Assembly (NCBI GenBank): GCA_008632985.1
Contig: QPGO01000051.1
Location: forward strand, 425,046 to 483,685
Direction: 5' to 3'
Length of the DNA stretch: 58,640 bases
Source: Psammoneis japonica
Taxonomy: Eukaryota
Below are positions 1-58,640 of this stretch, in pieces. The notes under the pieces are model-generated. The model saw only the letters and a program-made list of their open reading frames with translations, was not told the origin of the DNA and made no database searches. Numbering within the stretch: the stretch's first letter is position 1; the number at the start of each line of letters is the position of its first letter. The translations under genes were made by a program, and so were the position numbers.

Positions 1-99
1 GCTGCCAAAGTGTTCTTTCCATGCCATTGAGTGGGATTTCACTGAGCGCAGAGAGCCACACACTCGCCCTCACCGTGAAGACCTTGGCATTGAAGTCTT

Positions 100-228
100 C
101 TCTGCAGACAGGCCCAAGTCCCGCTCTGGCACTCAACTGTCAGCTTGTGCTCTGCACAAAACCCTCGGACACTGCTTGGCTCCAATTGGTGCCCAGAGGA
201 CTCAGCTGAAGAAAATCTTGCACAAGAT
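100..228 (+). repeat. Dispersed repeat fragment, inverted copy at ~41070-41195
   Basis: gcagacaggcccaagtcccgctctggcactca...ccagaggactcagctgaagaaa matches the reverse complement of 41070-41195 with scattered transitions. Confidence 0.8.
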
Positions 229-374
229 GGCGCAACGCACCAAATTCTGTTGAGAGCATCCAGGTTCCGACCTCAGAGACAACCGCATTTTTCAACTTGG
301 CAAAACGCCGTTGTCTGCGCCATTTTCATCGGGCAGGTTCTTGCTGTTCTGCAGCTCTGTCGTGGCCAGCAAAA

Positions 375-1205
375 TGGCCAAGGGCACAAAATCAAAAAGG
401 ACAAAAAATGTCTGTTGAGGGCGCCAAATCACAAAGAGCACAAACCAGGCAGGGGCACAAAATTGCTGAGGTCACAAAATGGCTGAGGGCGCAAAATGGT
501 GGCTGAGGGCACAAAGCTGCCAAGGGCAAAAAATCAGAAAGGGCCCAAGGTGGCAAAGGGCACAAAACCACAATGGCCAAAAATTGCTGAAGGCACAAAA
601 TCATGAGGGGCACCAAATGCGGCTGAGGGCCCAAAACCAAAAAAGGCACAAAGTGGACAAGGGCACAAAGTCACAAAGGGTGCAAAATGGCAAGGGCACA
701 AAACCACAAAAAGCACAAAATGCTCAAGGGCACAAAACAGCCAAGGGCACAAAAAGGTCAAGGGCACAAAGTCAAGAATTGCGCAACATGGCTGAGGGCC
801 CAAAACCAAAAAAGGCACAAAATGGCCAAGGGCACAAAGTCACAAAGGGCACAAAGTCACAAAGGGTGCAAAATGGCAAGGGCACAAAACCACAAAAAGC
901 ACAAAATGCTCAAGGGCACAAAAAAAGGAAAGGGCACAAAACAGCCAAGGGCACAAAAAGGTCAAGGGCACGAAGTCAAGAATTGCACAACATGGCTGAG
1001 GGCCCAAAGCCAAAAAAGGCACAAAATGGCCAAGGGCACAAAGCCACAAAGGGTGCAAAATGGCCAAGGGCACAAAACCACGAGATGTGGCAAAGTGCTC
1101 AAGGGCACAAAAAAAGGAAAGGGTGCAAAACAGCCAAGGGCACAAAAAGGTCAAGGGCGCAAAGTCAACAATTGCGCGACATGGCTGAGGGCACAAAGCC
1201 TCAAA
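375..1205 (+). repeat. Degenerate satellite built on (a/g)agggcacaaa / ccaagggcacaaaa
   Basis: Dozens of GGGCACAAA cores with 15-25 nt spacing; the K/Q/G-rich ORFs here are repeat translations. Confidence 0.9.
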
Positions 1206-4476: not shown

Positions 4477-4908
4477 TGCCCCATGCATGCACTGGGCGCT
4501 GAAAAAGAAGATGTGTTGCGACTTTGTCGTTGTGAAAATTATGAGCCAGTTTAGAGCAGAGAAAATGGGATCGTGCAAATGGGGGATCTTGCCAAATCCC
4601 TGTTCGTTCGCATTTGGATCACATTAAATCGATCGTGCACTCGCATCATGGATCGTGCGAATCAAGCCATCACGTGCCATGCATGAGTGATGTCATCGTG
4701 TGGAATCACGCTGTCATCGTGGGCCAGACGACGGGCCAGTGTGCCCCACACGGACGCTCTCTCAGCATCCTTCTGGAATTGCCTGAGACCCAGAGCCACG
4801 CCCTCCTGTGGTCGTGCTTCCCAGGTGCGTGTTGACAACACTGCGTTGCCACGTGCAAGAGGCTTGTGCACGGTCTCGCCGTGTTGTCCAGTGGCGAGGC
4901 ATGCTGCA
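4477..4908 (-). repeat. 3' LTR of gypsy element
   Basis: Colinear with 9343-9774 (offset 4866); preceded on the minus strand by a polypurine tract. Confidence 0.95.
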
Positions 4909-4918
4909 CACTCCCCCA
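4909..4918 (-). other. Polypurine tract of gypsy element
   Basis: Minus strand TGGGGGAGTG directly abuts the 3' LTR. Confidence 0.8.
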
Positions 4919-4949
4919 TGATCAGGGCCGCCAAGTGACAGAATGTCTT

Positions 4950-6780
4950 GCTGGTGACAGGGCACAATCTGCCGTAGATTGCACGTGTCTGTCAGCGCTC
5001 CATTCTGGACATGCAACGTGCCGTTGTCACACACACGGACAACTCTGGCGGGTCCTGCACAGCTGTCAGAACCGCGTTTGGAGGATTGTTCCTGTTTGAC
5101 AAGTGCCAATTGCCCTGCGGCATGTTGATGCTCCTTGCGTTTCTGATTTTCACGCTTGTTGTTCAAGTGGACAAGCTTCTGCTTTCTGGTTTCTATGTGC
5201 TTCCACTCAGCACAATGGGCAATGGATGAAACCGCATCGCGTCCGAAGACCAATTGCGTGGGACTTGCACGCATGGTCATGTGTGCCGCAGCTCCAATGG
5301 CGAAGGCCACTGCGGAGAGGATGCCACTCCATGGGTCATCTTCGTCCAGTTCCACACCCTGCACTGAAAAGGAACGTGCCATGTTGCCAAGTGTCTGGTG
5401 CACACATTCCACTGTGGCATTTGCCTGTGGATTCCATTTGCTTGTGGGTTTCTTCAAAATCCCACAGTCATTTTTAATCATCTGGCTAAATTCTGCCACA
5501 AATTCTGTTCCACGGTCATAAACTGCCTGGGTTGGCCACGGATGTCTGCATGGCCACGTTTGTTCCACGACGTTTGCTGCGACGTCTGCGCGTTTCGCAG
5601 ACACTTCTTTAATCTCGAACTGCCCGGTTGCTGGGTCAATCATTGTGACTGCCCACAATTGCAAGGTGTCCTTTCCGCGTCTTTGAATTTTGTGTGGCCC
5701 CATCATGTCCATGCATGGAGTCTCCCATGGAATTATCTCTGCGACCTTTTCTGGTGGCTTCCCATGATGCTGCGTTCGGCGTTTTGTCTTCTGGCATCGA
5801 TCGCACTTAACGCACGTAGAATGCACCGCAGACCTCACACTGGGCCAATGGAAGTGCTGGGCAATGGACATTTCCGTGCGTGTCTCACCTGGATGACACA
5901 GTGTCTCGTGGCGCCATTCAGTCAGCGGAACCTGCAATGACTGTGGTGCTGCGATTTTGTCCTTATGACAGATTAACTGTTGTGATGACCCTCCCCCACG
6001 ATGCGCGCGAATGGAGCAGTCGGGCGAGTCCCCAGCTCTTGAGAGCAGGCGCTTGTCCTTTTGTTGTGCTTTTTGAATGCGCTTGAAGCTAACAGGCAGA
6101 GACAGCTCATCTTGCACGTCTGCATTAAAAGCTTCATGCAAAGGACGACTCGATGGAGTGTCTTTTACATCCGGATTAGCCTCGGAAGGCAAGCTGGGTG
6201 CCAGTCGAAGGCAACCAAGAGCGTCAGCGACTGGGTTGTGGGCACCCTTGACACAGCGTAATTCGGGACCGTGTTCTTCACATGTTGGCCGCCAGCGCAT
6301 GACGCGCTCGGCATTGAACACTTTGTGCGCAAGATTTTTATGATCAGCAAATGTGACCACACGATGACCAAGGAGAATCGTTCGAAATTCTTTCAACGTC
6401 TCCACAATGGCGAGCAATTCTCTCTCCGTTGTTGCATGATTTAATTGCGCATTGTCAAGCTTTCTGCTGTAAAAGGCGACAGGTTCATTGTCTTGGGATG
6501 TGACTGCTCCCAATTGACATTTAGAGGCATCGGCATGCATCTCAAAGGGTTCATTAAAATCAGGATGTGACAACAAAACATCATCCGACATTGCCCGTTT
6601 GACGGTTTCGAACGCCTCGTCTTCAACGGACGTCCACTCCCACTTGACAGTCTCGCTTGCGAGTCGTGTCAGCGGAGCCAAGACTTCAGAATGTCTAATC
6701 CACGTGTCGCGGCAGTGGCCCCACCATGCCAACAAATGAACGCAGGTCGCGTTTGTTGGTTGGGGTCGCGATTCGCTCAA
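4950..6780 (-). pseudogene. pol: Gypsy pol: RNase H + integrase (decayed)
   Basis: HADASKCQLGAV, PVAFYSRKL, ERELLAIVETLKEFR (RNase H); H-x3-H...C-x2-C zinc finger (HETLCHPG...CVKCDRC); DRGTEF and NPQANATVE integrase core. Confidence 0.95.
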
Positions 6781-7500
6781 TGGCGTCGACTTTATCAGGT
6801 GTTGGTCGCATTCTGTCTCTGTTGACCAGATGACCCAAGCACTCTAATTGGGTTTGACAGAAGTGAGATTTAGTTGCGTTGACTTTTAGTCCTGCTTTCT
6901 GGACCCTCAATGAAACTTCTTCAAGTTTGTTGAGGTGATCTTCACAGGTGCCTTTCGTCACGACGAGAAGGTCATCTAAGTGCGTTCGAACGAACGACAG
7001 ATCTTCAAATGAGCCTGACATGCGTTCTTGGAAAATGTCTGGCGAGTTGCACAATCCCATGGGCAACACCTGCATCTCATGCTTGCCCCACGGGAAGATG
7101 AGCGTGCAGAGCTTCTTGCTGTCAGCATCCAATCGGACATGACAATGGCCCACATTTAAATCCAGCGATGTGGCCCACACAAAGCCTTCGAGCTTGAGCA
7201 GCATGTCTTGGACATGAGGAATCGGATGAGGCAATCGCTTGATCCGTTTGTTCAGCTCTCTCAAATCATCAACAAAGCGCACCGTAAATCTTTCTTCGGC
7301 ATGACAAATGATGGAGCTGCCCATTGGGATCGGTCAACGCGTTTGAGAACACCGACAGATGCGCACCAGGCGTTCTACTTCTTTGCGCAGCGCAGCTTCG
7401 CACGCACGAGGTGCTTCACACGGACGAGCGTGGCATGGTTCTACACCCTCCTTGAGTTGGGTGTGGCAGGGTTCTCCCTTCCATTCTCCCAATGTCCCAT
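6695..7500 (-). pseudogene. pol: Gypsy reverse transcriptase (frameshifted, YLDD->HLDD)
   Basis: VRFVDDLRELNKRIKRLPHPIP, LDLNVGHCH, LPMGLCNSPDIFQ, RTHLDDLLV, ECLGH. Confidence 0.95.
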
Positions 7501-7521
7501 CAAATGAGGACTCATGGCGTT

Positions 7522-8172
7522 TCAACAGCGCCAAAAGGTCGTTTTGTTGAACTGCAGAAAGACCCATTGCCCCTCGCTTATGTCCTCGAGGCAGGCCGGC
7601 GCGTGCTTGGCGTCCAAAATGCGCGAAATCCGGTCGGTTTCCGAAGACAAGGCTTCTGGATCTTGAAGATAGAAGGAGGTTTCCACCGTGGCATCTGCGT
7701 GCCTCATTGGCACTTCTCCATTGACTGATGGCCACTCTGTCATCTGTTTGGAGAAGACAACATTAATGCCTTGCGTCTCCAGAATGTCACGTCCAACAAT
7801 CACATCGCACTTGCCCAACTTTCCGTTGTGTGCGTGGACGGCATGCTTGAGTTCTGCAGTTTCGGACAATTCTGGCAACCAAAATTTAACGGCACAGTCG
7901 TCAGACGTGCCAAACGAGCCTGCTGCCGCAGCCCAGTTTGTCTCAGCCATTGAATGGCTTCGCAGACGTTTGCAGTGTCGACTGTCAAGTAGAGTGCTGC
8001 TGGCGCCACCATCCAGCAGTGCCTCAACAGTTTGAGTCTTGCCCTTGCCATGTTCAGCATTCATGGCCACAAACAAGATTGGAGCAAGATGAGTCTTTTT
8101 AACTCGTTTGCGGGATTGGCCTGCAACACGTGTACAATGGCAGTTCAGTTGTTCATTTGTACATTCATCCAA
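7522..8172 (-). pseudogene. Gypsy aspartic protease region
   Basis: ALLDGGASSTL (degenerate D-S-G-A) and DVIVGRDIL flap/end motif. Confidence 0.85.
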
Positions 8173-8208
8173 TGTGTCAAAACTGCCTGTGTCGTGTCGG
8201 CCCCCTTC

Positions 8209-9281
8209 TCAGGCGTCCGAATCTTCGGAATCACCCAAGTTGAGGTCGCGGAAGTGATTGAGCTCCTCCTCGTGGGCCTTGCGCTTTTTCTGAGCGTTGG
8301 CAAAGAACTCCTCGACCTTCGATCCGATGAGAGCATTGACATCTTCCTCATTCCGAGGTTTTGCATTTGGCTTGCCGCCTCCGTCATTGGAATGTCCAGT
8401 CTTGACACGTTTCACGTGGTGCTTGAGCTGACGGCAATCCTCCGTGTGATGTCCACAGTTGGTCCCGTGCAGCATGCACGACTTCTGGGTGTTCCGTTGG
8501 GTCGTGATCAACGACTCAGGATTGTCCGTTCTACGTCCCCGCTTGCGTGGAACCTCAGCATGTTGGTCCTGGTTACCTTCGGCAAGCTCGACCTGCTCGA
8601 TGCGCTCGCAGAACTGTGCAAATTTGGCGACAGTGTGCGCCAGCGGGTCAAAATTCTGCAGCGTCATGAACTTCTGCCATGCGTTCGGCACACCGCACTC
8701 GAACATGTCGCACAGTTCATCATTGGGTGATGGTGCCGGTGTTTCTCCATCCTCCGTCACGGGTGGAAACTGAGAGATGCAGCCGTTAATTTCAACAGCC
8801 CTCACGACGTGGTCACGAGCAGAAACCTCTGCGGGCTTGCGCATGAAGCATGCAGATGACGCTTCTGCAACAGTGCCGCCCCATGTGGGAAGATGCTTTC
8901 CTTTAGCTTCGCGACACATGCTGCGTGCGTGCGTGAGTTTGGGATGCCTGCTTGTCAGCGGCATTGTCAAATGACGTCAGAGCATCGCCCTGTGGCAGGT
9001 CACGCACAAGGGCAAATTTCCTGGCCCGGTCGTGATGTTTTGTCCTTCGTGCACGCGATCCACGTTGCGCAGAAAGATTGGGAGTGTCTCGCATGTGGCC
9101 GCAGAAAGGTGCGGAATGCCCATCTCGTGCGTTGGACCATCCGGATCAGCGGGGTTGTACGCAGCTTGAACGTCTGGCACTCGCCCTGCTGCAACTCTTT
9201 CTTCTCCGGCCGTGCAAACGGAATCGGCGGCTCAATCCGCTTCTTCATGGTCGTTTTAAGATTTGTCGGTCCTGCCAACAT
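8209..9281 (-). pseudogene. gag: Gypsy gag (frameshifted)
   Basis: Position between 5' LTR and protease; CMLHGTNCGHHTEDC zinc-knuckle-like motif; split over ORFs 9000-9281, 8977-9180, 8209-8970. Confidence 0.8.
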
Positions 9282-9331
9282 TTCGTAGTTTCGTTTCTGC
9301 AGATTTCGTCACCTCGCACAACATGCGGGAG

Positions 9332-9341
9332 TGACATCACT
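9332..9341 (-). other. Primer-binding site complementary to the element's own LTR (self-priming type)
   Basis: tgacatcact (9332-9341) is the exact reverse complement of agtgatgtca (9552-9561) inside the 5' LTR; no TGG tRNA-type PBS. Confidence 0.65.
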
Positions 9342-9342
9342 G

Positions 9343-9774
9343 TGCCCCATGCATGCACTGGGCGCTGAAAAAGAAGATGTGTTGCGACTTTGTCGTTGTG
9401 AAAATTGTGAGCCAGTTTAGAGCAGAGAAAATGGGATCGTGCGAATGGGGGATCTTGCCAAATCCCCATTCGTTCGCATTTGGATCGCATCAAATCGATC
9501 GTGCGCTCGCATTGTGGATCGTGCGAATCAAGCCATCACGCGCCATGCACGAGTGATGTCATCGTGTGGAATCACGCCATCATCGTGGGCCAGACGACGG
9601 GCTGGTGTGCTTCACACGGACGCTCTCTTGGCATCCTTCTGGAGTTGCCTGAGACCTGGAGCCACGCCCTCCTGTGGTCGTGCTTCCCAGGTGCGTGTTG
9701 ACAATGCTGCGTTGCCACGTACAAGAGGCTTGTGCACGGTCTCGCCGTGTTGTCCAGCAGCGAGGCACACTGCA
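9343..9774 (-). repeat. 5' LTR of gypsy element
   Basis: Colinear with 4477-4908. Confidence 0.95.
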
Positions 9775-10279
9775 CAAAGTGTGCTGAGCCCACACAGATT
9801 TGGGTTGCACCAGGCCACGTAGAAAGTGAGCGGGCCAAAAACTCCGGCGCACCCACTCAAACACATTCAACAACTGGCTGACAACAGATCGGTTGACTGG
9901 CTTCCCAAAGCGCCACTTGTGTCATGCCCTTCCCCGGCTGCTCTCCGGCTGGTGCCGTGGAGTGCAGTCACTCAATTTAGATTGTGCCTGCAACGTCATT
10001 TGCAACAAACGTGACTGCCACTTTTCACACATTGTCTGCCAAACAGGTGTTGGCTCCAGCTCATGTGTCTGGGTCCACCCCCCCACGCGGCTTTCCTCAC
10101 CCCCCAACCCATTGCCCCCCTCCTCCACTTTCCTGCCGCGCTCTGCCACAATCTTCCTGCAAAAATCCTCCCTCTTCCCTGCCATGAAGTGCTCCAGGCA
10201 TCTCGCGCACTTTCTCTCCTTTGCCCCACGTTCTTCATCAGGCAGGTTCTTGTTGTTCTGCAGCTCTGTCGTGACCAGC

Positions 10280-10874: not shown

Positions 10875-11146
10875 GAAAATGCGAAAATGCGAAAATGCGA
10901 AAATGCGAAAATGCGAAAATGCGAAAATGCGAAAATGCGAAAATGCGAAAATGCGAAAATGCGAAAATGCGAAAATGCGAAAATGCGAAAATGCGAAAAT
11001 GCGAAAATGCGAAAATGCGAAAATGCGAAAATGCGAAAATGCGAAAATGCGAAAATGCGAAAATGCGAAAATGCGAAAATGCGAAAATGCGAAAATGCGA
11101 AAATGCGAAAATGCGAAAATGCGAAAATGCGAAAATGCGAAAATGC
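10875..11146 (+). repeat. Perfect (GAAAATGC)n microsatellite, ~34 units
   Basis: Direct reading, no interruptions seen. Confidence 0.98.
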
Positions 11147-13426
11147 ACCAAACTCCGTTGAGAGTGTCCAGATTCCGACCTCAGAGATGACCGCATTTTT
11201 CAATTTGGCGAAACGCCGCTGTCCGTGCTGTTTTGCACGTTGTTTCAAGCCGCAGAGCCAGAAAACACTCCAAAAAAATTGCCCCGCAGGGCAAACAAAA
11301 GAGCAACGTAGAAAGAGAAAATGCACGCAAATTGAATGGCTGCATGCATGTGAAGCCTCAACAAAACACACAGCACGAATGGCAGCACATGAGGTTGGTT
11401 GTGATGCAACAGAAGCAACGTTGTCAGCGCGAACCTTCAGCAAGAATTTTCGCCATGATCTGCCCATGTGAGCCTGGATGTTCTCGAGCTTGTCTCGCAG
11501 AAGATGATGTGACAGTGACGAGCTCCATTGAGAGCATCCAGGCTCCGACCTCAGAGATGACCGCATTTTTCAATTTGGCAAAACGCCGTTGTTCGCGCCA
11601 TTTTGCGCGTCACTTTGAGCTGTGAGCCAGAAAACACTCCCAAAAACTGCTCTGCAGGGCAAAGCGCACTGAACCCACACAGACTTGGGTTGCTCCAGGC
11701 CACGAAGAAAGTGAGCGGGCCAAAAACTCCGGCGGACCCACTCAAACACATTCAACAACTGACTGACAACAGATCGGCTGACTGGTTTCCCAAAGTGCCA
11801 CTTGTGTTGTGCCCTTCCCCAGCTTCTCTCCAGCTGGCACCGTGGAATGCAGTCGCTCAATTTAGATTGTGTCTGCAACGTCATTTGCAACAAACGTGAC
11901 TGCCGCTTTTCACACATTGTCCGCCAAACAGGTTTTGGCTCCAGCTCATGTGTCTCAGCGCAACCCGCCACGTGGCTTTCCTCATCCCCCAAGCCATTGC
12001 CCCCCTCCTCCACTTTCCTGTCACGCTCTGCCACAATCTTCCTGCAAAAAACTTCCCTCTTGCGTTTCCTGGGTGCACTCCCTCTCGCATCTCCGTTCTT
12101 GGAGTTCCCTGTCGTGAAGTGCTCCAGGCATCTCGCGCACTTTCGTGCAAACAAGCCACATGTTCCCAGGCTTCAAACTGCCCCACAGCCAAAAGAAGCA
12201 ATCTTTGCCTTTAGAGTCACCATGATGTGCTGGTCTGCCAAATCAAACTCAGCATCGCCATGGACAGTGGGGGAGAAATGTTGTCAAAACTGCGCGATGA
12301 TGTGTTTGAGCTCTTGTGAGCTCACCCAGCTCAAGACATCATGGCTCCAAGTCGCCATGTTTGTCTTGAACTCTTCCTGATTCTGTGTCTGTGACTTGGC
12401 TTCGTCGCTGAATTGCCATGGCCACCGCACTTCAGAGACGACATTCTTGACAAGAAAAAGTGTCTCTGGGGTGCCTCATGACAACAGAGGCCCCACAGAA
12501 CAAAAGAGCAGCGCAGAAAGAGAAATTGCACGTAAATTGAACGACTGCAAACACATGAAGCCTCGACAAAACACACAGCACAAATGGCAGCGCATGAGGT
12601 TGGTCGTGAAGCAACAGAAGCGACGTTGTCAATGTGAACCTTCAGCAAGAATTTTTGCCACAATCTGCCCATGTGAGCCTGGATGCTCTCAAGCTCATCT
12701 CGCACAAGATGACACAATGAACCGAGTTCTGTTGAGAGCATCCAGGTTCCGACCTCAGAGACAATCGCATTTTTCAACTTGGCAAAACGCCATTGTCCGC
12801 GCCATTTTGCGTGTCATTTTGAGCTGCGAGCCAGAGAACACTCCCAAAAACTGTTCTGCAGGGCAAAGCGTGCTGAGCCCACACAGATTTGGGTTGCACC
12901 AGGCCACGTAGAAAGTGAGCGGGCCATGTGCTCCGGCGCACCCACTCAAACACATTCAACAACTGGCTGACAACAGATCGGTTGACTGGCTTCCCAAAGC
13001 GCTGCTTGTGTTGTGCCCTTCCCCGGCTGCTCTCTGGCTGGTGCCCTGGAGCGCAGTCACTCAATTTAGATTGTGCCTGCAACGTCATTTGCAACAAACG
13101 TGACTGCCGCTTTTCACACGTTGTCTGCCAAACAGGTGTTGGCTCTAGCTCATGTGTCTGGGTCCACCCCCCCATGCGGCTTTCCTCACCCCCCAACCCG
13201 TTGCCCCCCTCCTCCACTTTCCTGTCTTGCTCTGCCACAATCTTCCTGCAAAAATCCTCCCTCTTGCATTTCCTGGGTGCACTCCCTTCCGCATCTCCGT
13301 TCTTGGAGTTCCCTGCCATGGAGTGCTTCAAGCATCTCATGCACTTTCTCTCCTTTGCCCCACGTTCTTCATCGGGCAGGCTCTTGTTGTTCTGCAGCTC
13401 TGTCGTGACCAGCAAAGTGGCCAAGG

Positions 13427-13656: not shown

Positions 13657-13670
13657 TGGTTGTGAGTCCC
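13657..13670 (+). other. Primer-binding site, copia/hemivirus-type (internal tRNA-Met fragment)
   Basis: tggttgtgagtccc resembles the GGTTATGRGCCC copia-type PBS with TA->TG. Confidence 0.55.
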
Positions 13671-20778: not shown

Positions 20779-20785
20779 GAGGGAG
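20775..20785 (+). other. Polypurine tract of copia element
   Basis: ttgagagggag immediately before the 3' LTR. Confidence 0.8.
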
Positions 20786-28740: not shown

Positions 28741-28747
28741 ATTGTGT

Positions 28748-35423: not shown

Positions 35424-35424
35424 T

Positions 35425-44996: not shown

Positions 44997-47125
44997 AAAC
45001 GACATGTTTGTTTTCCTTGAAACGACATGTTTGTTTTCCTTGAAAAGACACGTTTGTTTTCAGACGCGCTCCAGCCCTGGGTGGGACTCCGTGTGACATT
45101 GGGCCCGCAGAATTCTGCGTGCGAGCTCCGCAGCACGAGAATTTAATTGGTGGATGCATTTGTCTTCAACATCAAACAAACGGCCAAGTTTGTGGTGCAA
45201 TTGTGCCTCTTGCCACTCGACGATTTTTGCAAATGCGTCTGCCCCACGCGATTCTTGAGACATTGTAGAATCGCGCTGTGACAAAAAATGTCAAAAGTTT
45301 TTGGACAGATCGCTCAATGAGTGCACCGTAAAATGACACAAAACATCAAAAAAATGGTGCAGAAATCTACGTGCGCGACATGCGACGAGATTCAAAAAAC
45401 TGTCGATGTCACAGTTCAGCAGTGCGAGGTCCCACCTAGACCTGGAACGCGTCTTCAAGACATGTTTGGTTTCCTTGAAAAGACACGCTTGTTTTCCCTG
45501 AAACCACATGTTTGTTTTCCTTGAAAACACATGTTTGTTTTCATTGAAAAGACATGTTTGATTTCCTTGAAACGACAAGTTTGTTTTCCTTGAAAACACA
45601 TGTTTGTTTTCCTTGAAATGACACGTTTGTTTTCCTTGAAACGACATGTTTGTTTTCCTTAAAAAGACATGTTTGTTTTCCTTGAAACAACATGTTTGTT
45701 TTCACCACATGTTTGTTTTCTTTGAAAAGACATGTTTGATTTCCTTGAAACGACAAGTTTGTTTTCATTGAAAAGACATGTTTGATTTCCTTGAAACGAC
45801 ACGTTTGTTTTCCTTGAAACGACATGTTTGTTTTCCTTGAAAAGACACACTTGTTTTCCTTGAAACAACATGTTTGTTTTCCTTGAAATGACATGTTTGT
45901 TTTCCTTGAAAAGACACATTTGTTTTCCTTGAAACGACATGTTTGTTTTCCTTGAAACCACATGTTTGTTTTCCTTGAAACAACATGATTGTTTTCCTTG
46001 AAATGGCATGTTTGTTTTCTTTGAAATGACACGTTTGTTTTCTCTGAAAAGACATGTTTGTTTTCCTTGAAAAGACATGTTTTTTTTTCCTTGAAACCAC
46101 ATGTTTGTTTTCCTTAAAATGACACGTTTGTTTTCCTTGAAACGACATGTTTGTTTTCATTAAAAAGACATGTTTGTTTTCTTTGAAATGAAATGTTTGT
46201 TTTCTTGAAAAGACATGTTTGTTTTCCTTGAAAAGACATGTTTGTTTTCTTTGAAACAACATGTTTGTTTTCCTTGAAACGACATGTTTGTTTCAATTGA
46301 AAAGACATGTTTGATTTCCTTGAAACGACATGTTTGTTTTCCTTGAAACAACATGTTTGTTTTCCTTGAAAAGACACATTTGTTTTCCTTGAAACAACAT
46401 GTTTGTTTTCTGTGAAATGGCATGTTTGTTTTCCTAGAAACGACATGTTTGTTTTCCTTGAAACCACATGTTTGTTTTCCTTGAAATGACATGTTTGTTT
46501 TCCTTGAAACGACATGTTTGTTTTCATTGAAAAGACACGCTTGTTTTCTTTGAAACAAAATGTTTGTTTTCCTTGAAAAGACATGTTTGTTTTCCTTGCA
46601 AAGACATGTTTGTTTTCTTTGAAACCACATGTTTGTTTTCCTTGAAACGACATGTTTGTTTTCATTGAAAAGAAATGTTTGATTTCCTTGAAACGACATG
46701 TTTGTTTTCCTTGAAACGACATGTTTGTTTTCCTTGAAAAGACACATTTGTTTTCCTTGAAACAACATGTTTGTTTTTCTTGAAACAACATGTTTGTTTT
46801 CCTTGAAAAGACACATTTGTTTTCCTTGAAACAACATGTTTGTTTTCCTTCAAATGGCGCGTTTGTTTTCCTTGAAACGACATGTTTGTTTTCCTTGAAA
46901 ACACACAATTGTTTTCCTTGAAACAACATGATTGTTTTCCTTGAAATGGCGCGCTTGTTTTCTTTGCAACAACGTGTTCATTTTCCTTGAAACAACATGT
47001 TTGTTTTCCTTGAAAAGACATGTTTGTTTTCCTTGAAACCACATGTTTGTTTTCCTTGAAATGACATGTTTGTTTTCCTTGAAAAGACACATTTGTTTTC
47101 CTTGAAACGACATGTTTTTTTCCTT
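44997..47125 (-). repeat. Large 23-bp satellite array, minus orientation, with MITE
   Basis: Continuous units apart from 45063-45453. Confidence 0.96.
45063..45453 (-). mobile_element. MITE family A (391 bp), TSD TTCA
   Basis: gacgcgctccagccctgggtgggac ... gtcccacctagacctggaacgcgtc; TTCA on both sides. Confidence 0.93.
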
Positions 47126-48648
47126 GGAAGAGGAAACAGGACCACCCAGATGCTGTCATGTCATTTGTGCATGACGTTGGCGCACCGCAGGTCCTTGTGT
47201 CGGATGGCGCCCCGGAAATGGCGGAAGGCCAGACCAAGGAGATCTGCAGGGAATGCAGGATGCACCAGGAGGTGTCCACCCCATGCAGCCCCTGGCAGAA
47301 CCTGGCCGAGGCACCCATTTGTGAGTTGAAGAAAAGAGTCCATGTGACTCTGCGCCGGGCTGGTGCTCACAGATGACTTTGGCCCCACAGCACCAAATGG
47401 ACATGTGACATCCGACGCATGATTGCGGCCAGTGTGTCAGACGTGGGAGGACGAGTCCCAGAAGAGGAGGTGACAGGTTCAACACCCGACATCTCTTCCC
47501 TCTCTCTCTTTGATTGGTGTCAACCTGTGCATTGCTGCGTGCCTGTGGTGGAGTTCCCACACAAAAAGAAGTGCACTGGCCATTGGCTTGGCGCAGCTGA
47601 CAATCATTGTTTTGCCCGAATCAGGCAAACCCATCATTCGGAAGGATGTCTGGGCCACGCCAGAGGATGACCTTAAAACTCTGGTGATCCAGACGGATCT
47701 TGCATTGGTCGATCAAGCTTTGATCAAACGGCTCAGCATCACGGAAAAGGGCGCCAGTGCTGACTTCCCTGAACTCCCTGACGACTTCATGGACAAATGG
47801 GACGATGCCGTTAAACCTGTGGAACCCGACGCTTCCAAACCGGAAGCTGATGAGCACACCCTGGAAGGGCTGGATGAATGTCTCACAGCTCAAGTCATGT
47901 CACCACGAGGAGGCGAGCTGACTCATGATGGGGTCATTGCGCACAAGTGAGATGGTGACGGGGTTCCTGTTGGCACTGGGAACGACTTGAGGACATGCAA
48001 CATGGAATTCCCTGACGGATCCACCGACTCCCATGCTGCTGACACAGTTGCAGAGAACCCATTCACTCAGATCGACTCTGAAGGGAATGCCCGCCAGATC
48101 ATGACCTTTGTGACATTTAAATTGCAACACATCGCCGTGATGCATTGGCTCTTGTCAGCAGCTGCACACTGCACTCCTCCCCATGTGTTGCGCGTCCACG
48201 CGGCTCTTTGCTGACGTGCACTGAAACTGCGCGGTTTTGGCGGAACAGTGTGGGTGTGCGCAAAGGAACACAAAGAACTGCACAGAGTTTTGCGCACTCG
48301 ACAGTGACCAACGTTGCTGCAGACAACTCCCACTCAGGGTTTCGAACCCCTGGCCTCCTGCCCAATGGTTGCGATGAACCACTCCGCCAAAAATTCATGA
48401 TGCAGCACGCATGCAGACAAAAGGTTGTTTTTGTCACAACCTTTGTGACATTTAAATTGCAGCACGTTGCCATGATGCATCAACTCTCATTGGCAGCTGT
48501 GCATTGCAACGTGCTGCAACGGCCAATGACGGGTGCACAACGACCAAGACTGGCAGGTGTGCTCCTGGGAGGACGACTGCAGGCTGGGACCTGCAAGTCA
48601 AATGGAAGGATGGGACTGCATCCTGGGTTCTCTCAAGGATTTGAAGTC
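47120..48648 (+). pseudogene. CoDi-like copia integrase/linker fragment, inverted relative to 41509-41910 and extending it
   Basis: 47120-47515 is the reverse complement of ~41510-41910; continues GHWLG, EFPDGSTDSHAADTVAEN, GWDLQVKWKDGTASW; interrupted by ~48104-48510. Confidence 0.85.
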
Positions 48649-51600
48649 AAAGAAAACAAACATGTCTTTCAAGGAAAACAAACGTGTCATTTCAAGGAAA
48701 ACAAACGCGCGGTTTCAAGGAAAACAAACACATGGTTTCAAGGAAAACAAACATGTCTTTTCAAGGAAAACAAACATGTCTTTTCAAGGAAAACAAACGT
48801 GTTGTTTCAAGGAAAACAAATGTGTGTTTTCAAGGAAAACAAACGTGTGGTTTCCAGGAAAGCAAACATGTCATTTCATGGAAAACAAGCATGTCTTTTC
48901 AAAGAAAACAAGCATGTCTTTTCAAGGAAAACAAACATGTCTTTCAAGGAAAACAAACGTGTCGTTTCAAGGAAAACAAACATGTCTTTTCAAGGAAAAC
49001 AAACATGTTTTTTCAAGGAAAACCAACACGTCTTTTCAAGGAAAACAAATGTGTTGTTTCAGGGAAAAACAAACATGTGGTTTCAGAGAAAACAAACATG
49101 TGTTTTCAAAGAAAACAAATGTGTCGTTTCAAGAAAAACAAACGTGTTGTTTCAAAGAAAACAAACATGTCTTTTCAAGGAAAACAAATGTGTCCATTCA
49201 AGGAAAACAAACGTGTCGTTTCAGGGAAAACAAACATGTCGTTTAAAGACAAACATGTTGTTTCAAAGAAAACAAACACATCTTTTCAAGGAAAACAAAC
49301 ATGTCGTTTCAAGAAAACAAACGTGTCATTTCAAGGGAAACAAACACATCTTTTCAGAGAAAACCAAGGTGTCATTTCATGAAAAACAAACATGTGGTTT
49401 CAAGGAAAACAAACGTGTCATTTCAAGGAAAACAAACATGTCTTTTCAAGGAAAACAAACATGTCTTTTCAAGGAAAACAAAAATGTCGTTTCAAGGAAA
49501 ACAAACATGTCTTTTCAGAGAAAACAAACGTGTCATTTCAAGAAAAACAAACATGTCGTTTCAAGGAAAACAGACATGTCTTGAAAACAAACATGTCGTT
49601 TCAAGGAAAACAAACATGCGTTTTCAAGGAAAACAAACGTGTTTTTTCAAGGAAAACAAATGTGTCTTTTCAGGGAAAACAAACATGTCGTTTCAGGGAA
49701 AACAAAGTGTCGTTTCAAGGAAAACAAACATGTTGTTTCAAGGAAAACAAACATGTCTTTTCAAGGAAAACAAACATGTCTTTTCAAGGAAAACAAACAT
49801 TTCGTTTCAAAGAAAACAAACATGTCTTTTTGATGAAAACAAACATGTCATTTCAAGGAAAACAAACGTGTCATTTTAAGGAAAACAAACATGTGGTTTC
49901 AAGGAAAACAAACATGTCTTTTCAAGAAAAACAAACATGTTGTTTCAAGGAAAACAAACACGTCGTTTCAAAGAAACAAACATGCCATTTCAAGGAAAAA
50001 AATCATGTTGTTTCAAGGAAAACAAATGTGTGTTTTCAAGGAAAACAAACATGTCGTTTCAAGGAAAACAAACATGCCATTTCAAGGAAAACAAACATGT
50101 TGTTTCAAAGAAAACAAATGTGTCTTTCAAGGAAAACAAACATGTGGTTTCAAGGAAAACAAACATGTGGTTTCAAAGAAAACAAACATGTCTTTTCAAG
50201 GAAAACAAACATGTCATTTCAAGGAAAATAAACACGTCGTTTCAAAGAAAATAAACATGCCATTTCAAGGAAAACAATCATGTTGTTTCAAGGAAAACAA
50301 TTGTGTGTTTTCAAGGAAAACAAACATGTCGTTTCAAGGAACACAAACGTGCCATTTCAAGGAAAACAAACATGTTGTTTCAAGGAAAACAAATGTGTCT
50401 TTTCAAGGAAAACAAACATGTTGTTTCAAGGAAATCAAACATGTCTTTTCAATGAAAACAAACATGTGGTTTCAATGAAAACAAACATGTCTTTTCAAGG
50501 AAAACAAACATTTTGTTTCAAAGAAAACAAACATGTCTTTGCAATGAAAACAAACATGTCATTTCAAGGAAAACAAACATGTCATTTCAAGGAAAACAAA
50601 CATGTGGTTTCAAGGAAAACAAACATGTTGTGTCAAGGAAAACAAACATGTCTTTTTAAGGAAAACAAACACGTCATTTCAAGGAAAACAAACGTGTCAT
50701 TTCAAGGAAAACAAACATGTGTTTTCAAGGAAAACAAACTTGTTGTTTCAAGGAAATCAAACATGTCTTTTCAATGAAAACAAACATGTGTTTTCAAGGA
50801 ACCAAACATGTGGTTTCAGGGAAAACAAGCGTGTCTTTTCAAGGAAACCAAACATGTCTTGAAGACGCGTTCCAGGTCTAGGTGGGACCTCGCACTGCTG
50901 AACTGTGACATCGACAGTTTTTTGAATCTCGTCGCATGTTGTGCACGTAGATTTCCATGCCATTTTTTTGATGTTTTGTGTCATTTTACGGCACACTCAT
51001 TGAGCGATCCATCCAAAAACTTTTGACATTTTTTGTTGCAGCGCAATTCTACAATGTCTCAAGAATCGCGTGGGGCAGACGCATTTGCAAAAACGTCGAG
51101 TGGCAAGAGGCACAGTTGCACCACAAACTTGGCCGATTGTTTGATGTTGAAGACAAATGCATCCACCAATTAAATTCTTGTGCTGCGGAGCTCGCACGTA
51201 GAATTCTGTGGGCCCAATGTCACACGGAGTCCCACCCAGGGCTGGAGCGCGTCTGAAAACAAACGTGTCTTTTCAAGGAAAACAAACATGTTGTTTCAAG
51301 GAAAACAAACATGTTGTTCTGAACAAATGCTGGTGTGCTGTCACAAACACAGGCAGCTTGTGTGCTGTTGGCGATTGGCTCTCGTTTCAGGAAAAACAAA
51401 CATGTCGTTCAAAGACAAACATGTTGTTTCAAAGAAAACAAACACATCTTTTCAAGGAAAACAAACATTTCATTTCAAGAAAAACAAACGTGTCATTTCA
51501 AGGAAAACAAACACATCTTTTCAGAGAAAACCAAGGTGTCATTTCAAGAAAAACAAACATGTGGTTTCAAGGAAAACAAACCTGTGGAAAACAAACGTGT

Positions 51601-53340
51601 CATTTCAAGAAAAACAAACATGTCTTTTCAAGGAAAACAAACACGTTGTTTCAAGGAAAACAAACATGTGGTTTCAAGGGAAAACAAACATGTGGTTTCA
51701 AAGAAAACAAACATGTCTTTTCAAAGAAAACAAACATGTCTTGTCAAGGAAAACAAACACGTCATTTCAAGGAAAACAAACATGTCGTTTCAAGGAAAAC
51801 AAACACGTCATTTCAAGGAAAACAAACATGTCTTGAAAACAAACATGTCTTTTCAAGGAAAACAAACATGTCGTTTCAAGGAAAACAAACATGTTGCTTC
51901 AAGGGAAAAATGCCTTTCAAGGAAAACAAACATGTCTTTCAAGGAAAACAAACATGTCGTTCAAGGAAAACAAACGTGTCGTTTCAAGGAAAACAAACAT
52001 GTGTTTTCAAGGAAAACAAACAAATGGTTTCAAAGAAAGCAAACATGTCGTTTCATGGAAAACAAGCATGTCTTTTCAAGGAAAACAAACATGTCTTTTC
52101 AAGGAAAACAAACATGTCGTTTCAAGGAAAACAAAAGTGTCGTTTCAGGGAAAACAAACATGTGGTTTCAAGGAAAACAAACATGTCTTTTCAAGGAAAA
52201 CAAACATGTCTTTTCAAGAAAAACAAACGTGTTGTTTCAAAGAAAACAAACATGTCTTTTCAAGGAAAACAAACGTGTCATTTTAAAGAAAACAAACATG
52301 TGGTTTCAAGGAAAACAAACATGTCATTTCAGGGGAAAAAAACACGTCATTTCAAGGAAAACAAGCGTGTCTTTTCAAAGAAAACAAACACCTTGTTTCA
52401 AAGAAAACAGACATGTTGTTTCAAAGTCACCTCAACAAACATGTCATTTCAAAGAAAACAAACATGTCTTTTCAAAAAAAAACAAACATGTCGTTTCAAA
52501 GAAAACAAACATGTCTTTTCAAGGAAAACAAATGTGACATTTCAAAGAAAACAAACATGTTTTTCAAGGAAACGAATCATGTCTTTTCAAGGAAAACAAG
52601 CGCATCGTTTCAAGGAAAACAAACATGTCGTTTCAAGGAAAACAAACATGTTGTTTCAAGGAAAACAAACATGTTGTTTCAAAGAAAACAAACATGTGGT
52701 TTCAAGGAAAGCAAACATGTCGTTTCATGGAAAACAAGCATGTCTTTTCAAAAAAACAAACATGTCTTTTCAAGGAAAACAAACGTGTCTTTTCAAGGAA
52801 AACAAACGTGTTGTTTCAAGGCAAACAAACATGTCTTTTCAAGGAAAACAAACATGTTTTTTCAAGGAAAACAAACATGTCTTTTCAAAGAAAACAAATG
52901 TGTTGTTTCAGGGAAAACAAACATGTGGTTTCAGAGAAAACAAACATGTCTTTTCAACGAAAACAAACATGTTGTTTCAAGAAAAACAAACGTGTCATTT
53001 CAAAGAAAACAAACATGTCTTTTCAAGGAAAACAAACGTGTCTTTTCAAGGAAAACAAACGTGTCGTTTCAGGGAAAACAAACATGTCTTTCAAAGACAA
53101 ACATGTTGTTTCAAAGAAAACAAACACATCTTTTCAAGAAAACAAACGTGTCATTTCAAGAAAAACAAACGTGTCATTTCAAGGAAAACAAACACATCTT
53201 TTCAGAGAAAACCAAGGTGTCATTTCAAGAAAAACAAACATGTGGTTTCAAGGAAAACAAACCTGTCATTTCAAGGAAAACAAACATGTCTTTTCAAGGA
53301 AAACAAACATGTCTTTTCAAGGAAAACAAACATGTCGTTT
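48648..53340 (+). repeat. Largest 23-bp satellite array (~4.7 kb), consensus TCAAGGAAAACAAACATGTCTTT
   Basis: 23-nt period (23-aa periodic ORFs FQGKQTCLFKENKHVFSRKTNMS); includes MITE 50864-51253 and LTR tip ~51320-51381. Confidence 0.97.
50864..51253 (+). mobile_element. MITE family A (390 bp), TSD TGAA; inverted duplicate of 45063-45453
   Basis: TGAA at 50860-50863 and 51254-51257; flanks match the reverse complement of the 45063 copy. Confidence 0.93.
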
Positions 53341-53746: not shown

Positions 53747-56471
53747 TCAATGAGCGAACTTGTCCAACAGGAAATTGTGACAAATCGAAGTCACAACCTT
53801 TGTGAACAAATCCGCAAGGTTGGTTTCCGCATCCTCCTTTGCTGGGCGAACAGTCCCCGCAGCAACAGCTTCCCTGTTGCGATGGCATGCAATGGAATGA
53901 TGCTTCTTCTTGAGAGCAGACTCCGGGATGGAGCAATTCTTGCACACTGCTTCATTGTCACAGAACACGTTCGTAGAACCTTCAACAGGAACTCCAAACA
54001 TTCGAAGCTTGTGCCTCAGACCTTCAACAAGTTCCACCGCAACCTTGAGTGCCACGATCTCGGCGCCAAAAGCACCAGTCTCCACGGTGTTCTGTCTCTT
54101 CGAACACCAGATGATGGGTGCTCGGCACAGGAATGTCAGAACACCTGCATGACTGCGGCGAGTTGATGCATCACCAGCATGGTTGGCATCCACGAAACAA
54201 TGAGCAGACACAACGTCACCTCGAGGTGGTGGCATGTTGGGGGGAATCGCCTCTTGCGCGTCTCGGCAGAAGTCGAGCCAATCGCACTCCTTGAACCTAG
54301 ACTCGTCGATGACCGGATGCGTAGGATCGAACGCCACCCGACGCTTTGGGACCTGTTTGAGGCATGCACAGACATGCAATGCCTGTTCCAAGTGACCAAT
54401 GCGCGGCAAGGCAAGGTGAGCCGACACACTTGACACTTCCAAAATGACATCGACCCTGCCCAACTCCACGGCCCAAATCAAAACGCCAATCAGCTCTTGG
54501 CAGCAGTTGAGGCCTTCTGCATCCAGTTCGCCCGAAGTGTCCAACTCTGGCTTGTGTCCGCTGCTTGAAGGTGTGCATGCTTTGCTCGGTGGCCGTTTTC
54601 CTTCCTTGGCCAATTTGTCCTCAACATTCCGGACCGCCGCCTTGCAGCAATCTTCTGCTGACATCGTCCAGCAGGCAGCACCATCAGCAAGGTCCATCTT
54701 CGACAACTTGGCGCCCAAGTGGGATTCAGGCTCCGCTGCTTTGTCGTCTTTGAGCTTGAACTTCGACTTGATGCCATCCATGGTCTTCATTGGCTCATGG
54801 CCAATCGACAGCAAGTCGTCGACGTACACCAAGATGCACTCGTAGCACTCGAATCCGTCTGGCTTCACTGCTGGCCTCATCCAAACATCGGGATCAGCCT
54901 TGTTGGGCTTGCATCCTAGATCACAAAGCGTCTCCGCAAGGAAGGCCCTGAATGCCGCGCCGGAGCTCTTCAATCCGTAGAGTGCCCTGACTGCAATCAT
55001 GATCTCACTGCGTTCTGCACCAAACTCTTCACCGGCACGAGTCCAAATTTTCTCTCGGCACGGCGCTGTCAAGCAGGCATTCTGGATGTCGCAGGCAAAG
55101 ACTTGTGAGTCATCAAGCGCGGCAAGTGCAAGGGCAATCCTCACCAAATCCCTGGAAACAACTGAGGAGCAGGCAATGGCAGTTGGGGCATCGGTCATGT
55201 GACCACCCGCAACCATCCCACTCTTGCGCCGAAAGTTCTCTCCCAACTTGATGTCAAAAATCATGTGACAATCGATTTGTTGGCACCCAGGAGGCAGCTC
55301 CGTTTCGTCCCCCTCGAACTTGTCGAACGCAACTCGAACATTCTTCATTTCCAAGCAAATGGCGTCATGCCACAAGGTGTTGCTGTTCGCACGATCGAGC
55401 TCCAGTGCCTCCTTCACAGTCTTGGGAATTCGCGTGCCAAATTTGTGGGTTCTCAACCAATGCTTCGACTTGACCTTCACAATGGAACGCTTGCGGGTCC
55501 TCATTGCGTGCGGAACCCACCAAGCAAACGCCGGCTCCTTCGAGATCTTGCGTTGGATGGCGAGCTCGGCGACCTGGACAGGGAGTCCTTCCTTCGCGTC
55601 CTTTGGGTCAACCCAAGTGGCACTGCCATCCTTCCATTGGAACAAGAGTTCCCATCCTTTCGTGGTCCTGCGCTGCCTCTTGTTGCCTTGCTCAGTTTCA
55701 AAGAAATCGGATTCCGGGACGTCCCATTCGCACGGAAGTCTGTAATCTCATCGAACAGAACATGCCGATTTCCGTCCTCGTCAATCTGTGCAAACATGTT
55801 CATGGCAACAGAGTCAGCTGAAAGTGCTGCAGTGTGACCATCGGGACACTCCACCTGACACATTCGAGTGTCTAGGATTGGGTTGTCGTTGGCTGTCCCA
55901 ATGGGAATGCCACTCGCATCCCTCAACCTCTTCGTTGCACGCGCGAACTCGGGACCATCATCATCTCTCGGCAAAGCCAATTCCATGTTGAGATGACCCC
56001 AATCCGCCGCTTCCGGGGAGGCTTCCTCGTCTTTCTTGTCGTCGTCCTTGTTCAACACATCTTCAGAACTGATGACGCGATCGCACTCATCGAGGAATTC
56101 GTCGTCACACCCAAGATGGTCCTTCCAGTCTTCGGGGCTGATCCTGCGCTCTTCGTCTTCGGGAAACTCTTGGTCACGAAGTCTGCGCTGGATCTCCTCA
56201 TCAAAAGCCTTGAACCGATCTTGATTCTCTTGAGTGCCAGCTTCCAAGTTGGTGACTCGCTGAACAGATGTTCGCGATGTGACACGACCGGTTTGCGTCA
56301 ACACGTGATGTGACATTAGACTGCCAATCCGGTGGGACACTCCGAGCCACCTGCCGAGCTTCTGGTCACCAAGACCAGCGTTCTCCCTGTGCCAAACCCA
56401 ATCGTAGAATCCGAAGTCAAGGTGCTCTGAGATGTCAACAGTTTCGCCAAGCATTTCTTCCAGAGGAACGC
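53747..56471 (-). pseudogene. pol: CoDi-like pol: integrase C-terminus, chromo-like linker, RT, RNase H
   Basis: GRWLGVSHRIG; WKDGSATW; CHMIFDIK, DIQNACL, ALYGLKSSGAAF, LVYVDDLL; FVDANHAGD, FCDNEAV, LKKKH, NLADLFTK; frameshift near 55650. Confidence 0.95.
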
Positions 56472-57038
56472 NNNNNNNNNNNNNNNNNNNNNNNNNNNNN
56501 NNNNNNNNNNNNNNNNNNNNNNNNNNNNNNNNNNNNNNNNNNNNNNNNNNNNNNNNNNNNNNNNNNNNNNNNNNNNNNNNNNNNNNNNNNNNNNNNNNNN
56601 NNNNNNNNNNNNNNNNNNNNNNNNNNNNNNNNNNNNNNNNNNNNNNNNNNNNNNNNNNNNNNNNNNNNNNNNNNNNNNNNNNNNNNNNNNNNNNNNNNNN
56701 NNNNNNNNNNNNNNNNNNNNNNNNNNNNNNNNNNNNNNNNNNNNNNNNNNNNNNNNNNNNNNNNNNNNNNNNNNNNNNNNNNNNNNNNNNNNNNNNNNNN
56801 NNNNNNNNNNNNNNNNNNNNNNNNNNNNNNNNNNNNNNNNNNNNNNNNNNNNNNNNNNNNNNNNNNNNNNNNNNNNNNNNNNNNNNNNNNNNNNNNNNNN
56901 NNNNNNNNNNNNNNNNNNNNNNNNNNNNNNNNNNNNNNNNNNNNNNNNNNNNNNNNNNNNNNNNNNNNNNNNNNNNNNNNNNNNNNNNNNNNNNNNNNNN
57001 NNNNNNNNNNNNNNNNNNNNNNNNNNNNNNNNNNNNNN
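56472..57038. other. Assembly gap (567 N)
   Basis: Run of n. Confidence 1.
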
Positions 57039-58621
57039 GCTCAAGTCAACAGCGGTGACAGAGCTGTGCCGTTCCTTGGACATGAAAGTCTTCGGGGACG
57101 GTGCGTCTTCGAGTTCCGAGCCGATCGTCTCAGTGGCCGCGATCTGAACATCCGCTTCCACCTGGACTGACGCTGTCAATCTTGATTGAACTTGGTCCAC
57201 ACCGCAGACAAGTCTCCTGTCACAACAGTCCCCGGTCTGAGGGTTGCTGTGATCAGGATCCTGACCAAACGCGCAGCTGGGGCTTGACCGAACAGTTGCG
57301 ACCAACCGAGTCAACTCCATTTCCTCCTCCACAGAACGTCGAGGTCTGGATTGCTCAAACTTGACGTTGTGTGGATCCCAAGGTTGTTGGGAGGTCAACT
57401 GGATGTGTGGGCACTCTTGGAGCTCCCTTTCAGTGGGGGTCCGAGTTGCCGCAACGATGCCAGTTCCCATCAACTCAAGGGGCAGCATAAATCCCTTGTC
57501 CTCCGTAAGGACATGCAACGGCGACTCGGAACAGGGGTCATCCTGAACCGTGACACTGAAATGCCTCATCTGATTCGGGTCAAGGAGAGAATTCTCCATG
57601 GAATCTGCCATCCAAAGCCCTTCATGGAATGCCAGGACATGCGTTGCTCCCGTCGCCGGTGAGGTCCACGCAGTGGCCGCCGATGCGATTGGGACACTCT
57701 TGATGGCTTCGCATCCCTCGTTGTAAGGTGATGCGTCGCATTCTCTGCCAGTGCAACCCAAGAGGGTAAAGTTAGAACCAAAAACAGCAGTGTCAGCATG
57801 TGAGTCCAACTCCAGTCGCCCATGCTTTACCTGATCGTCTGTTCGGACGTGAGTGGCACGCGTGTAGTCGTGCCGCAGAGACTCGTCGTGCAGAAGTGGC
57901 AATTTCACAAATGCAACGACAGTCCCCATGAACCAACATTTCTTTCGAACGATGCGGCTGGCCCCCACCCCAATGAAGCAGCCACAATGCAAACTGGATG
58001 AGGCCACATGACAGGGTCCAGCTCAGGAGTCAGCTGCGTTGCTGACGCTCCTGGCATCCCCCAAATGCATCTCCGGCATTGTTGCCGCCTTGACGCCAGT
58101 TCCTGCACCAACCTTTCCGGATCGGTGCCGGCAGTGGTCTCCAAGGAAGAAACAGTGCAGTTTGCTTGCTCAAGCTGGGGCGTCAGCTTCCGATTCTTCT
58201 TTTCAAGCAATCTGACGGATGCAGCGCGGCGCTTCGGGTCACCCGGCTTCTTCTTGAGTCCCAAACGCACACGCTCGTCCATGACCTTCTTCTTGTCTTC
58301 CTTGCTCAATTGATGCCAATTTTTATGAAATCCGGTGTCAATGGACCCATCTTCTTTGCAAATGGAATCACCTTCCTTGCCAACGCCGGATGCAACAGAG
58401 GAAATTGCACGACGGTGCGCAACTGTTTCCGGGAGAGTGGCGACTTTAGCGGCAAGATGGTTGCACGCTGCAGCAAAACTGATCCCTCCTCCGAACTCAT
58501 TCTGCGCCTTCAGGGTCTCTGCTGCGTTCTGCAACTGCTGGTGTTGCACCTTGTCAAACAGCAATCGCAGCTTCTGAGCCTCCGTCTTGGGTTCATCATT
58601 CTCTTCGAAAATGTTGAACAT
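57039..58621 (-). pseudogene. CoDi-like gag C-terminus and protease region
   Basis: ELDSHADTAVFGSNF, HEGLWM, SLLDPNQMRHF, LTSQQPWDP; gag-like KLRLLFDKVQ..WHQLSKEDKKKV. Confidence 0.88.
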
Positions 58622-58640
58622 CTCCCCTGAAGCTTGTTCA

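Follow-up and report, generated by a model that had tools for sequence, protein, structure and literature searches.

Composition of the window

We analysed a stretch of 58,640 nt from Psammoneis japonica (GCA_008632985.1, contig QPGO01000051.1, positions 425,046–483,685 of the forward strand), hereafter the window, in which a gypsy-type and a copia-type long terminal repeat (LTR) retrotransposon, a second copia fragment, unclassified repeats and satellite arrays lie together (Table 1), and from which the dinucleotide TA (TpA) is almost absent. Counting over the whole window gave 212 TA against ∼3,690 expected from the base counts (T, 15,044; A, 14,383), an observed/expected ratio of 0.06. The dinucleotides TG (5364) and CA (5631) had a ratio of 1.53 each, and the other values were 0.72 for CG, 1.47 for AA, 1.32 for TT and 0.79 for AT. 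Biased gene conversion was considered as a cause and rejected, because AA, TT and AT are still abundant. A first-pass annotation, made without database searches, had already noticed the near absence of TA throughout the window and had estimated ∼30 TA in the copia element by eye; our counts agreed with both statements (28 TA in this element, 398 expected).

The depletion extends over the whole window, as the TA ratio lay between 0.02 and 0.21 in 30 out of 30 bins of 2 kb, with the peak values at 4–10 kb, in the gypsy element. This element is the least eroded one (51 TA against 288 expected). Both copies of a ∼3.3-kb unclassified repeat are TA-poor, and the consensus unit of the 23-bp satellite has no TA at all.

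As the triplets TAA (92) and TAG (64) are nearly absent compared with TGA (1123), long open frames are found in all six frames, and we counted 132 stop-to-stop open reading frames (ORFs) of at least 150 aa. Most of these long ORFs have no Pfam match, and gene callers would over-predict here; regions poor in TAA and TAG, being full of long spurious ORFs, therefore call for caution in annotation. Among 69 ORFs of at least 150 aa that were scanned against Pfam, 65 gave no match, the gypsy and copia ORFs were the sole matches, and no host gene was recognised. All of the sequence in the window is repeated, and the window holds no single-copy control; it is probably a repeat-rich block of heterochromatin.

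The relatives of the copia pol protein are ∼50% identical to it, and the named ones come from diatoms (Fragilaria crotonensis, Nitzschia inconspicua and Cylindrotheca closterium). For the transposon proteins in general, the closest named ones are also from F. crotonensis and other diatoms, at 34–53% identity. No copia relative above 55% identity was present among the 120 proteins listed; the protein search gave no gypsy relative above 51% and no named close one. A scan of viral contigs for relatives found none, the ∼3.3-kb repeat had no Pfam match, and no target-site duplication was recognised for the gypsy element.

Table 1. Features of the window, and the two TA-erased loci from metagenomes.
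Feature	Position	Strand	Basis or remark
Whole window	1–58640	.	TA-erased; made up of nested retrotransposons with unclassified repeats and satellites
Gypsy-type LTR retrotransposon	4477–9776	-	Pfam RVT_1, RT_RNaseH, Integrase_H2C2 (integrase zinc domain)
Gypsy LTRs	4477–4910 and 9343–9776	-	434-bp alignment, no gaps, TG...CA ends
Copia-type (CoDi-like) LTR retrotransposon	13427–21015	+	Pfam RVT_2, gag_pre-integrs
Copia LTRs	13427–13657 and 20785–21015	+	231-bp pair
Copia pol frame	16597–19641, continuing in 19642–20424	+	ORFs
Second copia pol fragment	53747–55747	-	Pfam RVT_2, motifs
Unclassified ∼3.3-kb repeat, two copies	21500–24812 and 28740–31616	+	Self-BLAST, 92–95% identical
23-bp satellite, two main arrays in opposite orientation	45459–47126 and 48647–53340	.	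Tandem Repeats Finder, inverted repeats
23-bp satellite, smaller arrays	34876–35138, 39508–40010 and 41245–41507	.	Tandem Repeats Finder
Assembly gap	56472–57038	.	567 N
TA-erased metagenome loci	L055:744–2156 and L073:1–1500		L055 with a 471-codon open frame

Tyrosine codons and surviving TA sites

According to the genetic code, a change of TA to TG or CA converts TAY codons (Tyr) to TGY (Cys) or CAY (His), and xTA codons to xTG or xCA. In the copia pol frame, 14 columns have Tyr in 70% or more of 15 relatives; the window has Cys at seven, His at three, Tyr at three and Phe at one of them. The other conserved residues of the same frame were mostly kept (Gly 37/39, Pro 31/35, Asp 22/24 and Trp 11/12). 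In the gypsy frames, the 26 Tyr columns have His in 11 cases, Cys in eight, Tyr in one and other residues in six. A pooled survey covering seven ORF segments of three elements, with a threshold of 60% among 12 relatives, gave 73 Tyr columns, which are occupied in the window by Cys (27), His (17), Phe (7), Tyr (6) and other residues (16). Further replacements, Leu to Ser or Pro, Val to Ala, and Thr to Ala when preceded by T, match TA dinucleotides that span or end codons.

The relatives carry Tyr at the altered columns of the gypsy and copia elements and of all seven ORF segments. The change is from A:T to G:C at TpA, on either strand, in the direction that the first-pass annotation had proposed.

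The individual gypsy and copia motifs that it had named were also found at or near the places it gave. On the plus strand, the first copia element has CVDD (19705–19716), LCGLKQ (19576–19593) and EAEC (20371–20382); on the minus strand, the gypsy element has HLDD (6971–6982), GHCH (7139–7150), PHPIP (7217–7231) and ECLG (6833–6844). The motif NACL, attributed to a CoDi element and named without a coordinate, occurs at seven places, one of which (55070–55081, minus strand) falls within the stretch of the second copia pol fragment that matches Pfam RVT_2. The catalytic YxDD of the reverse transcriptase is lost in the forms CVDD and HLDD, which stand in place of YVDD and YLDD; one YVDD is retained, in the second copia fragment (54815–54826, minus strand). 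A change of TA to TG or CA never makes an in-frame stop, yet it removes TAA and TAG, and therefore the elements are disabled by missense changes while long frames stay open.

In the first copia element (16597–20424), Tyr was replaced by Cys 19 times and by His six times, TG being the dominant product on the plus strand, and the replacements in the gypsy element are nearer to parity. The excess of Cys in the former may come from a local strand bias of the process. When the choice between TG and CA was compared with the flanking bases at the Tyr codons, the numbers were too small for a pattern.

Next, we looked at the neighbours of the TA dinucleotides that survive. Forty-eight of the 212 are in TTAA, and among the trinucleotides ATA (7) and TAT (14) are rare compared with TTA (91) and TAA (92). 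When two flanking bases were considered, TAGA, TACG and TAAA were over-represented 1.9- to 3-fold among the survivors, and TAT-, TACC and TACT were at 0.2–0.3; repeated copies inflate these counts, so that the profile is to be taken as a lead only. All six surviving Tyr codons are TAC and none of them is preceded by A; four of the six are followed by G and thus read TACG. Two inverted copies of one short element (22601–22740 and 36480–36620) both keep TA in ACGTAGA...TCTACGT and in TTTAC. A CpG adjoining TA may protect it.

Hypermutation is an established form of genome defence, by fungal repeat-induced point mutation (RIP) and by APOBEC and ADAR in animals. The pattern in the window resembles RIP in that mobile DNA, once integrated, is inactivated by a fast, context-specific hypermutation through transitions, of which a dinucleotide scar is left behind. 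However, RIP changes C to T, mainly at CpA, and makes TpA and stops, whereas the window loses TpA and gains in GC content, and in-frame stops cannot arise. With TA at 0.06 of its expectation and with TAA and TAG far below TGA, the signature of RIP is not present in the window.

Timing and rate of the TA loss

The two LTRs of one element are identical at insertion, so the differences between them record later changes. The gypsy LTR pair (434 bp) has 29 mismatched positions, of which 21 are TA-derived. They comprise nine sites with TG in one LTR and CA in the other (18 positions) and three sites where TA in one LTR faces TG or CA in the other; five CpG-decay positions and three other positions make up the rest. 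Decay of CpG on both strands would predict only 0.11 sites of the TG-against-CA type in this pair, as 28 CG are shared by the two LTRs and five have decayed singly. As TA-derived differences separate the two LTRs of a single element, the TA change came after insertion, and the fast hypermutation of inserted elements suggested by the first-pass annotation is supported.

We estimated the extent of the loss from these counts with a simple model, in which each LTR loses a fraction y of its TA and the products TG and CA are equally likely. With the reservation that the counts are small, the fit gave y ∼0.92 and an initial number of ∼21 TA; at 4.9% of the dinucleotides, this is a normal density. Thus, ∼92% of TA was lost per LTR, against 8% of CG. 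In relative terms, and again from small counts, TA was lost at about 30 times the rate of CpG decay and at a few hundred times that of other changes. The copia LTR pair (231 bp) has five TG-against-CA sites, two sites with TA in one LTR only, five CpG-decay and four other mismatched positions. The residual LTR divergence outside TA and CpG follows the same order as the erosion: 3/434 for the gypsy element, which kept 51 of 288 TA, and 4/231 for the copia element, which kept 28 of 398.

These data bear on the view that TA is simply avoided throughout the genome and that the window is not specially targeted, which could be entertained since no host gene lies within the window for comparison. We think it improbable. 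The LTR pairs show that the elements arrived with ∼4.9% TA and lost it later, and therefore their source copies had kept both TA and Tyr. Copies in a public sequencing run (described below) retain TA at some sites, 6 out of 40 listed differences, and a proteome needs Tyr codons.

Even slightly less credit can be given to A-to-I editing of the retrotransposon RNA by an ADAR-like enzyme with a 5′-U preference, acting before reverse transcription and integration. Most of the recognisable elements in the window are retroelements, and the TA context agrees with the 5′ neighbour preference of ADARs, as mentioned in the Discussion of a preprint on the alga Bigelowiella natans (Mettrop et al., bioRxiv 10.64898/2026.01.13.699255, dated 2026-04-14). 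But the two LTRs would then be expected to be identical at the edited sites, and the gypsy pair differs at nine TG-against-CA and three TA-containing sites. In addition, depletion of TA is equally strong in the 23-bp satellite and in the unclassified repeats, and the two strands are hit about equally, as seen from the numbers of TG and CA.

We also compared the repeats with one another, in 16 copy pairs with 10,388 aligned positions. There were 786 mismatches (613 transitions and 173 transversions), and among the 157 adjacent double mismatches 68 were CA against TG. Single decay of CpG accounted for 236 dinucleotide mismatches (110 CG against TG and 126 CA against CG), with CG conserved in both copies at 259 sites. 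Likewise, the two copies of the ∼3.3-kb repeat differ at few sites with TA in one copy and at many CpG-decay sites. The CpG decay, which the first-pass annotation did not mention, runs in parallel at a lower rate and leaves the TA loss unexplained; part of the excess of TG and CA is due to it, because it supplies both dinucleotides. Two approaches were given up on these grounds. The TG-against-CA mismatch was rejected as a general hallmark, being ambiguous with CpG decay, and was retained for the LTR pairs only. Polarisation by parsimony with at least three copies was uninformative, as it gave five ancestral TA sites and parallel CpG decay mimics A-to-G changes.

Deamination of 5-methylcytosine resembles the main process in giving TG and CA as products, and CpG decay is active in the window. 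However, it consumes CG and not TA, offers no route from a Tyr codon to one for Cys or His, and is ∼30 times slower in the gypsy LTRs. The earlier statement that neither RIP nor 5-methylcytosine decay can explain the loss of Tyr therefore stands, the former having the opposite direction and the latter the wrong substrate.

Copies outside the window were compared as Logan contigs of one public run, which holds 51% of the sampled words of 13500–21000. The contigs cover 11200–21000 in many copies, with 907 transition and 122 transversion places. Among the 40 listed differences, CG in a contig often stands opposite TG or CA in the window. No RNA run holding the stretch was listed. The least probable of the explanations that we weighed, and one to which we give hardly any credence, is that the pattern arose artificially, through the sequencing chemistry, the base calling or the assembly. 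The assembly does have a gap inside the window, and its source data may be those of the sole public run found to contain the stretch. Yet a separate assembly of this run has the same words, and two metagenome contigs from other records, belonging to a different copia family, are equally erased. Besides, the surviving TA show a context pattern and an age gradient, and the same signature was measured in NovaSeq-sequenced mutation-accumulation lines of another alga, as reported in the preprint cited above.

The two erased contigs were among 80 metagenome loci with coding sequence for copia relatives; 78 of the loci had a TA ratio of 0.36–0.88. The remaining two, L055 and L073, have 1 TA in 2158 bp and 4 TA in 1516 bp, respectively, and are 67% identical to each other at the DNA level. 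In the family of L055, 14 of the 120 database relatives among the matches listed have less than 0.7% Tyr. We looked at eight columns with Tyr in the Tyr-bearing members of the family; in the 11 Tyr-poor ones, these columns are occupied by Phe (32), Tyr (14), His (5), Cys (4), Leu (3) and other residues (5). Because Phe is not a product of a change from TA to TG or CA, such lineages may be TA-free by selection, as an escape, and not by decay; with only a small number of rows, which are related to one another, we regard this as a lead only. Similarly, the three proteins with the lowest Tyr content among the 120 listed relatives of the window copia have Tyr changed to Phe, or kept, and not Cys or His.

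Two observations concern the simple repeats. The main arrays of the 23-bp satellite form a large imperfect palindrome, with arms of up to 734 nt that are 86–90% complementary. In one repeat copy (10875–11146), the 8-bp microsatellite GAAAATGC runs for 34 units without a mismatch, and in the paralogue of this copy (1329–1548) its 27 units are only 86% matched, which suggests a recent expansion or homogenisation.

Interpretation and a published parallel

We consider it very probable, on the evidence of the DNA sequence, that a TpA-specific process acted on the integrated DNA, far faster than other substitutions, and ran almost to completion, and we infer that this process is an enzymatic, targeted genome defence. 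The block consists of the gypsy element, the two copia elements, the unclassified repeats and the 23-bp satellite, and the LTR elements would have been inserted with a normal content of TA. Mutation specific for TpA would then have converted TA to TG or CA, that is, A:T to G:C on either strand. The elements would thereby have been crippled by missense changes, with Tyr removed even from the catalytic YxDD, and the erasure of TAA and TAG stops would have opened the six frames.

Several points weigh against this interpretation. No gene or unique sequence is present in the window, and the sparing of the host rests only on the TA density calculated for the time of insertion and on the analogy with the preprint. 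Between the repeat copies, ∼27 of the 68 TG-against-CA mismatches are predicted from CpG decay, as a CG that decays on both strands gives the same pattern; the clean signal is from the LTR pairs only, where the counts are small. The multi-copy families share most of their TA loss, and five ancestral TA sites were found where at least three copies align. In the gypsy LTR there is no same-strand run, the order of the products being TG CA TG CA CA CA CA TG TG. Finally, the public run was available as contigs and not as raw reads, and these may be the source data of the assembly.

With regard to the chemistry, adenine would be deaminated in the 5′-TA context, most likely by an ADAT2/TadA-like adenine deaminase, which is our leading guess for the enzyme. 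ADAT2/TadA-like enzymes naturally meet U33-A34 in tRNA. The window resembles the activities of ADAR and of ADAT2/3/TadA in that A-to-I changes are read as G and that U or T is 5′ of the edited A; to our knowledge, the natural substrates known for these enzymes are RNA. ADARs prefer G as the 3′ neighbour, unlike the pattern deduced from the survivors in the window, where TAT is the most and TAA the least lost.

The same targeted process could instead start from a lesion of thymine. An enzyme of the TET/JBP type might, for instance, oxidise the T of TpA to 5-hydroxymethyl- or 5-formyl-uracil, and the product would mispair with G and give T-to-C changes. In dinoflagellates, 5-hydroxymethyluracil is found preferentially at TpA and TpC. 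As TA to CA on one strand is TA to TG on the other, all of the sequence results fit either base and none is against the thymine lesion. The preprint on B. natans prefers adenine deamination by analogy only. We give the thymine lesion a minor but real share of the probability, well below that of adenine deamination.

The signature itself has already been described, and the window is an instance of the signature reported for B. natans (bioRxiv 10.64898/2026.01.13.699255). In 15 mutation-accumulation lines, sequenced by Illumina NovaSeq, 231 of 302 nuclear mutations were in two integrated viral regions; 230 of these 231 were A-to-G or T-to-C, and all the GC-biased ones are stated to be on TpA. 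The rate was ∼6e-7 per site per generation compared with 3.5e-10 elsewhere, more than 1000-fold over the baseline, and the hypermutation appeared in only some of the lines. The preprint also reports 324 coding sequences whose TpA frequency is 0.0018 and among which domains of reverse transcriptase and DDE endonuclease are enriched, and TpA-depleted windows that form 124 clusters. Its main target is stated to be single-copy, and by analogy it puts forward an ADAT2 homologue as a candidate for the enzyme. Our search of the full-text literature, which dealt with TpA, hypermutation, RIP and genome defence, with diatoms, and with Copia/CoDi in Bigelowiella, turned up no second description of the signature.

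The two cases share the exclusive A:T-to-G:C change at TpA with TG and CA as products, a rate far over the background (here a relative one, from the LTR pairs), a long-term loss of TpA with a gain of CpA and TpG, and transposon-type domains among the erased sequences. They differ in their targets, which are LTR retrotransposons, unclassified repeats and a satellite in the window, and giant-virus and virophage inserts in B. natans. The window is near saturation over 58.6 kb (ratio 0.06), whereas a Rho of 0.45 is given for the nucleocytoplasmic large DNA virus region of B. natans. Moreover, the transposon relatives of the window are from diatoms, and its rate is not a de novo one but was deduced from LTRs.

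In the light of this parallel, the overall interpretation of the first-pass annotation was right on the polarity, on the exclusion of RIP and 5-methylcytosine decay, and on a fast hypermutation after insertion. Its statement that no described pathway matches had to be withdrawn, as the same signature was measured in B. natans. Its picture of a RIP-like process targeted to repeats found no support either; the single-copy main target in B. natans argues against triggering by homology.

TpA-specific, GC-increasing hypermutation was first reported from a single alga, in that 2026 preprint. To that report, the window adds a near-saturated end state on LTR retrotransposons and satellites over 58.6 kb; an estimate of timing and rate after insertion, obtained from LTR pairs and independent of culture experiments; a co-occurring and much slower CpG decay; and a neighbour-context profile that any candidate enzyme must reproduce. 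There are also hints that the signature is present in environmental samples and that it may drive counter-adaptation of transposons. It is possible, though we put this forward only tentatively, that TpA hypermutation serves as a genome defence in at least one algal lineage beyond the chlorarachniophyte, with transposons of diatom type, where it would silence LTR retrotransposons and shape satellite-rich heterochromatin to saturation, and that some copia lineages have escaped it by becoming TA-free with their frames intact, Tyr having been changed to Phe.

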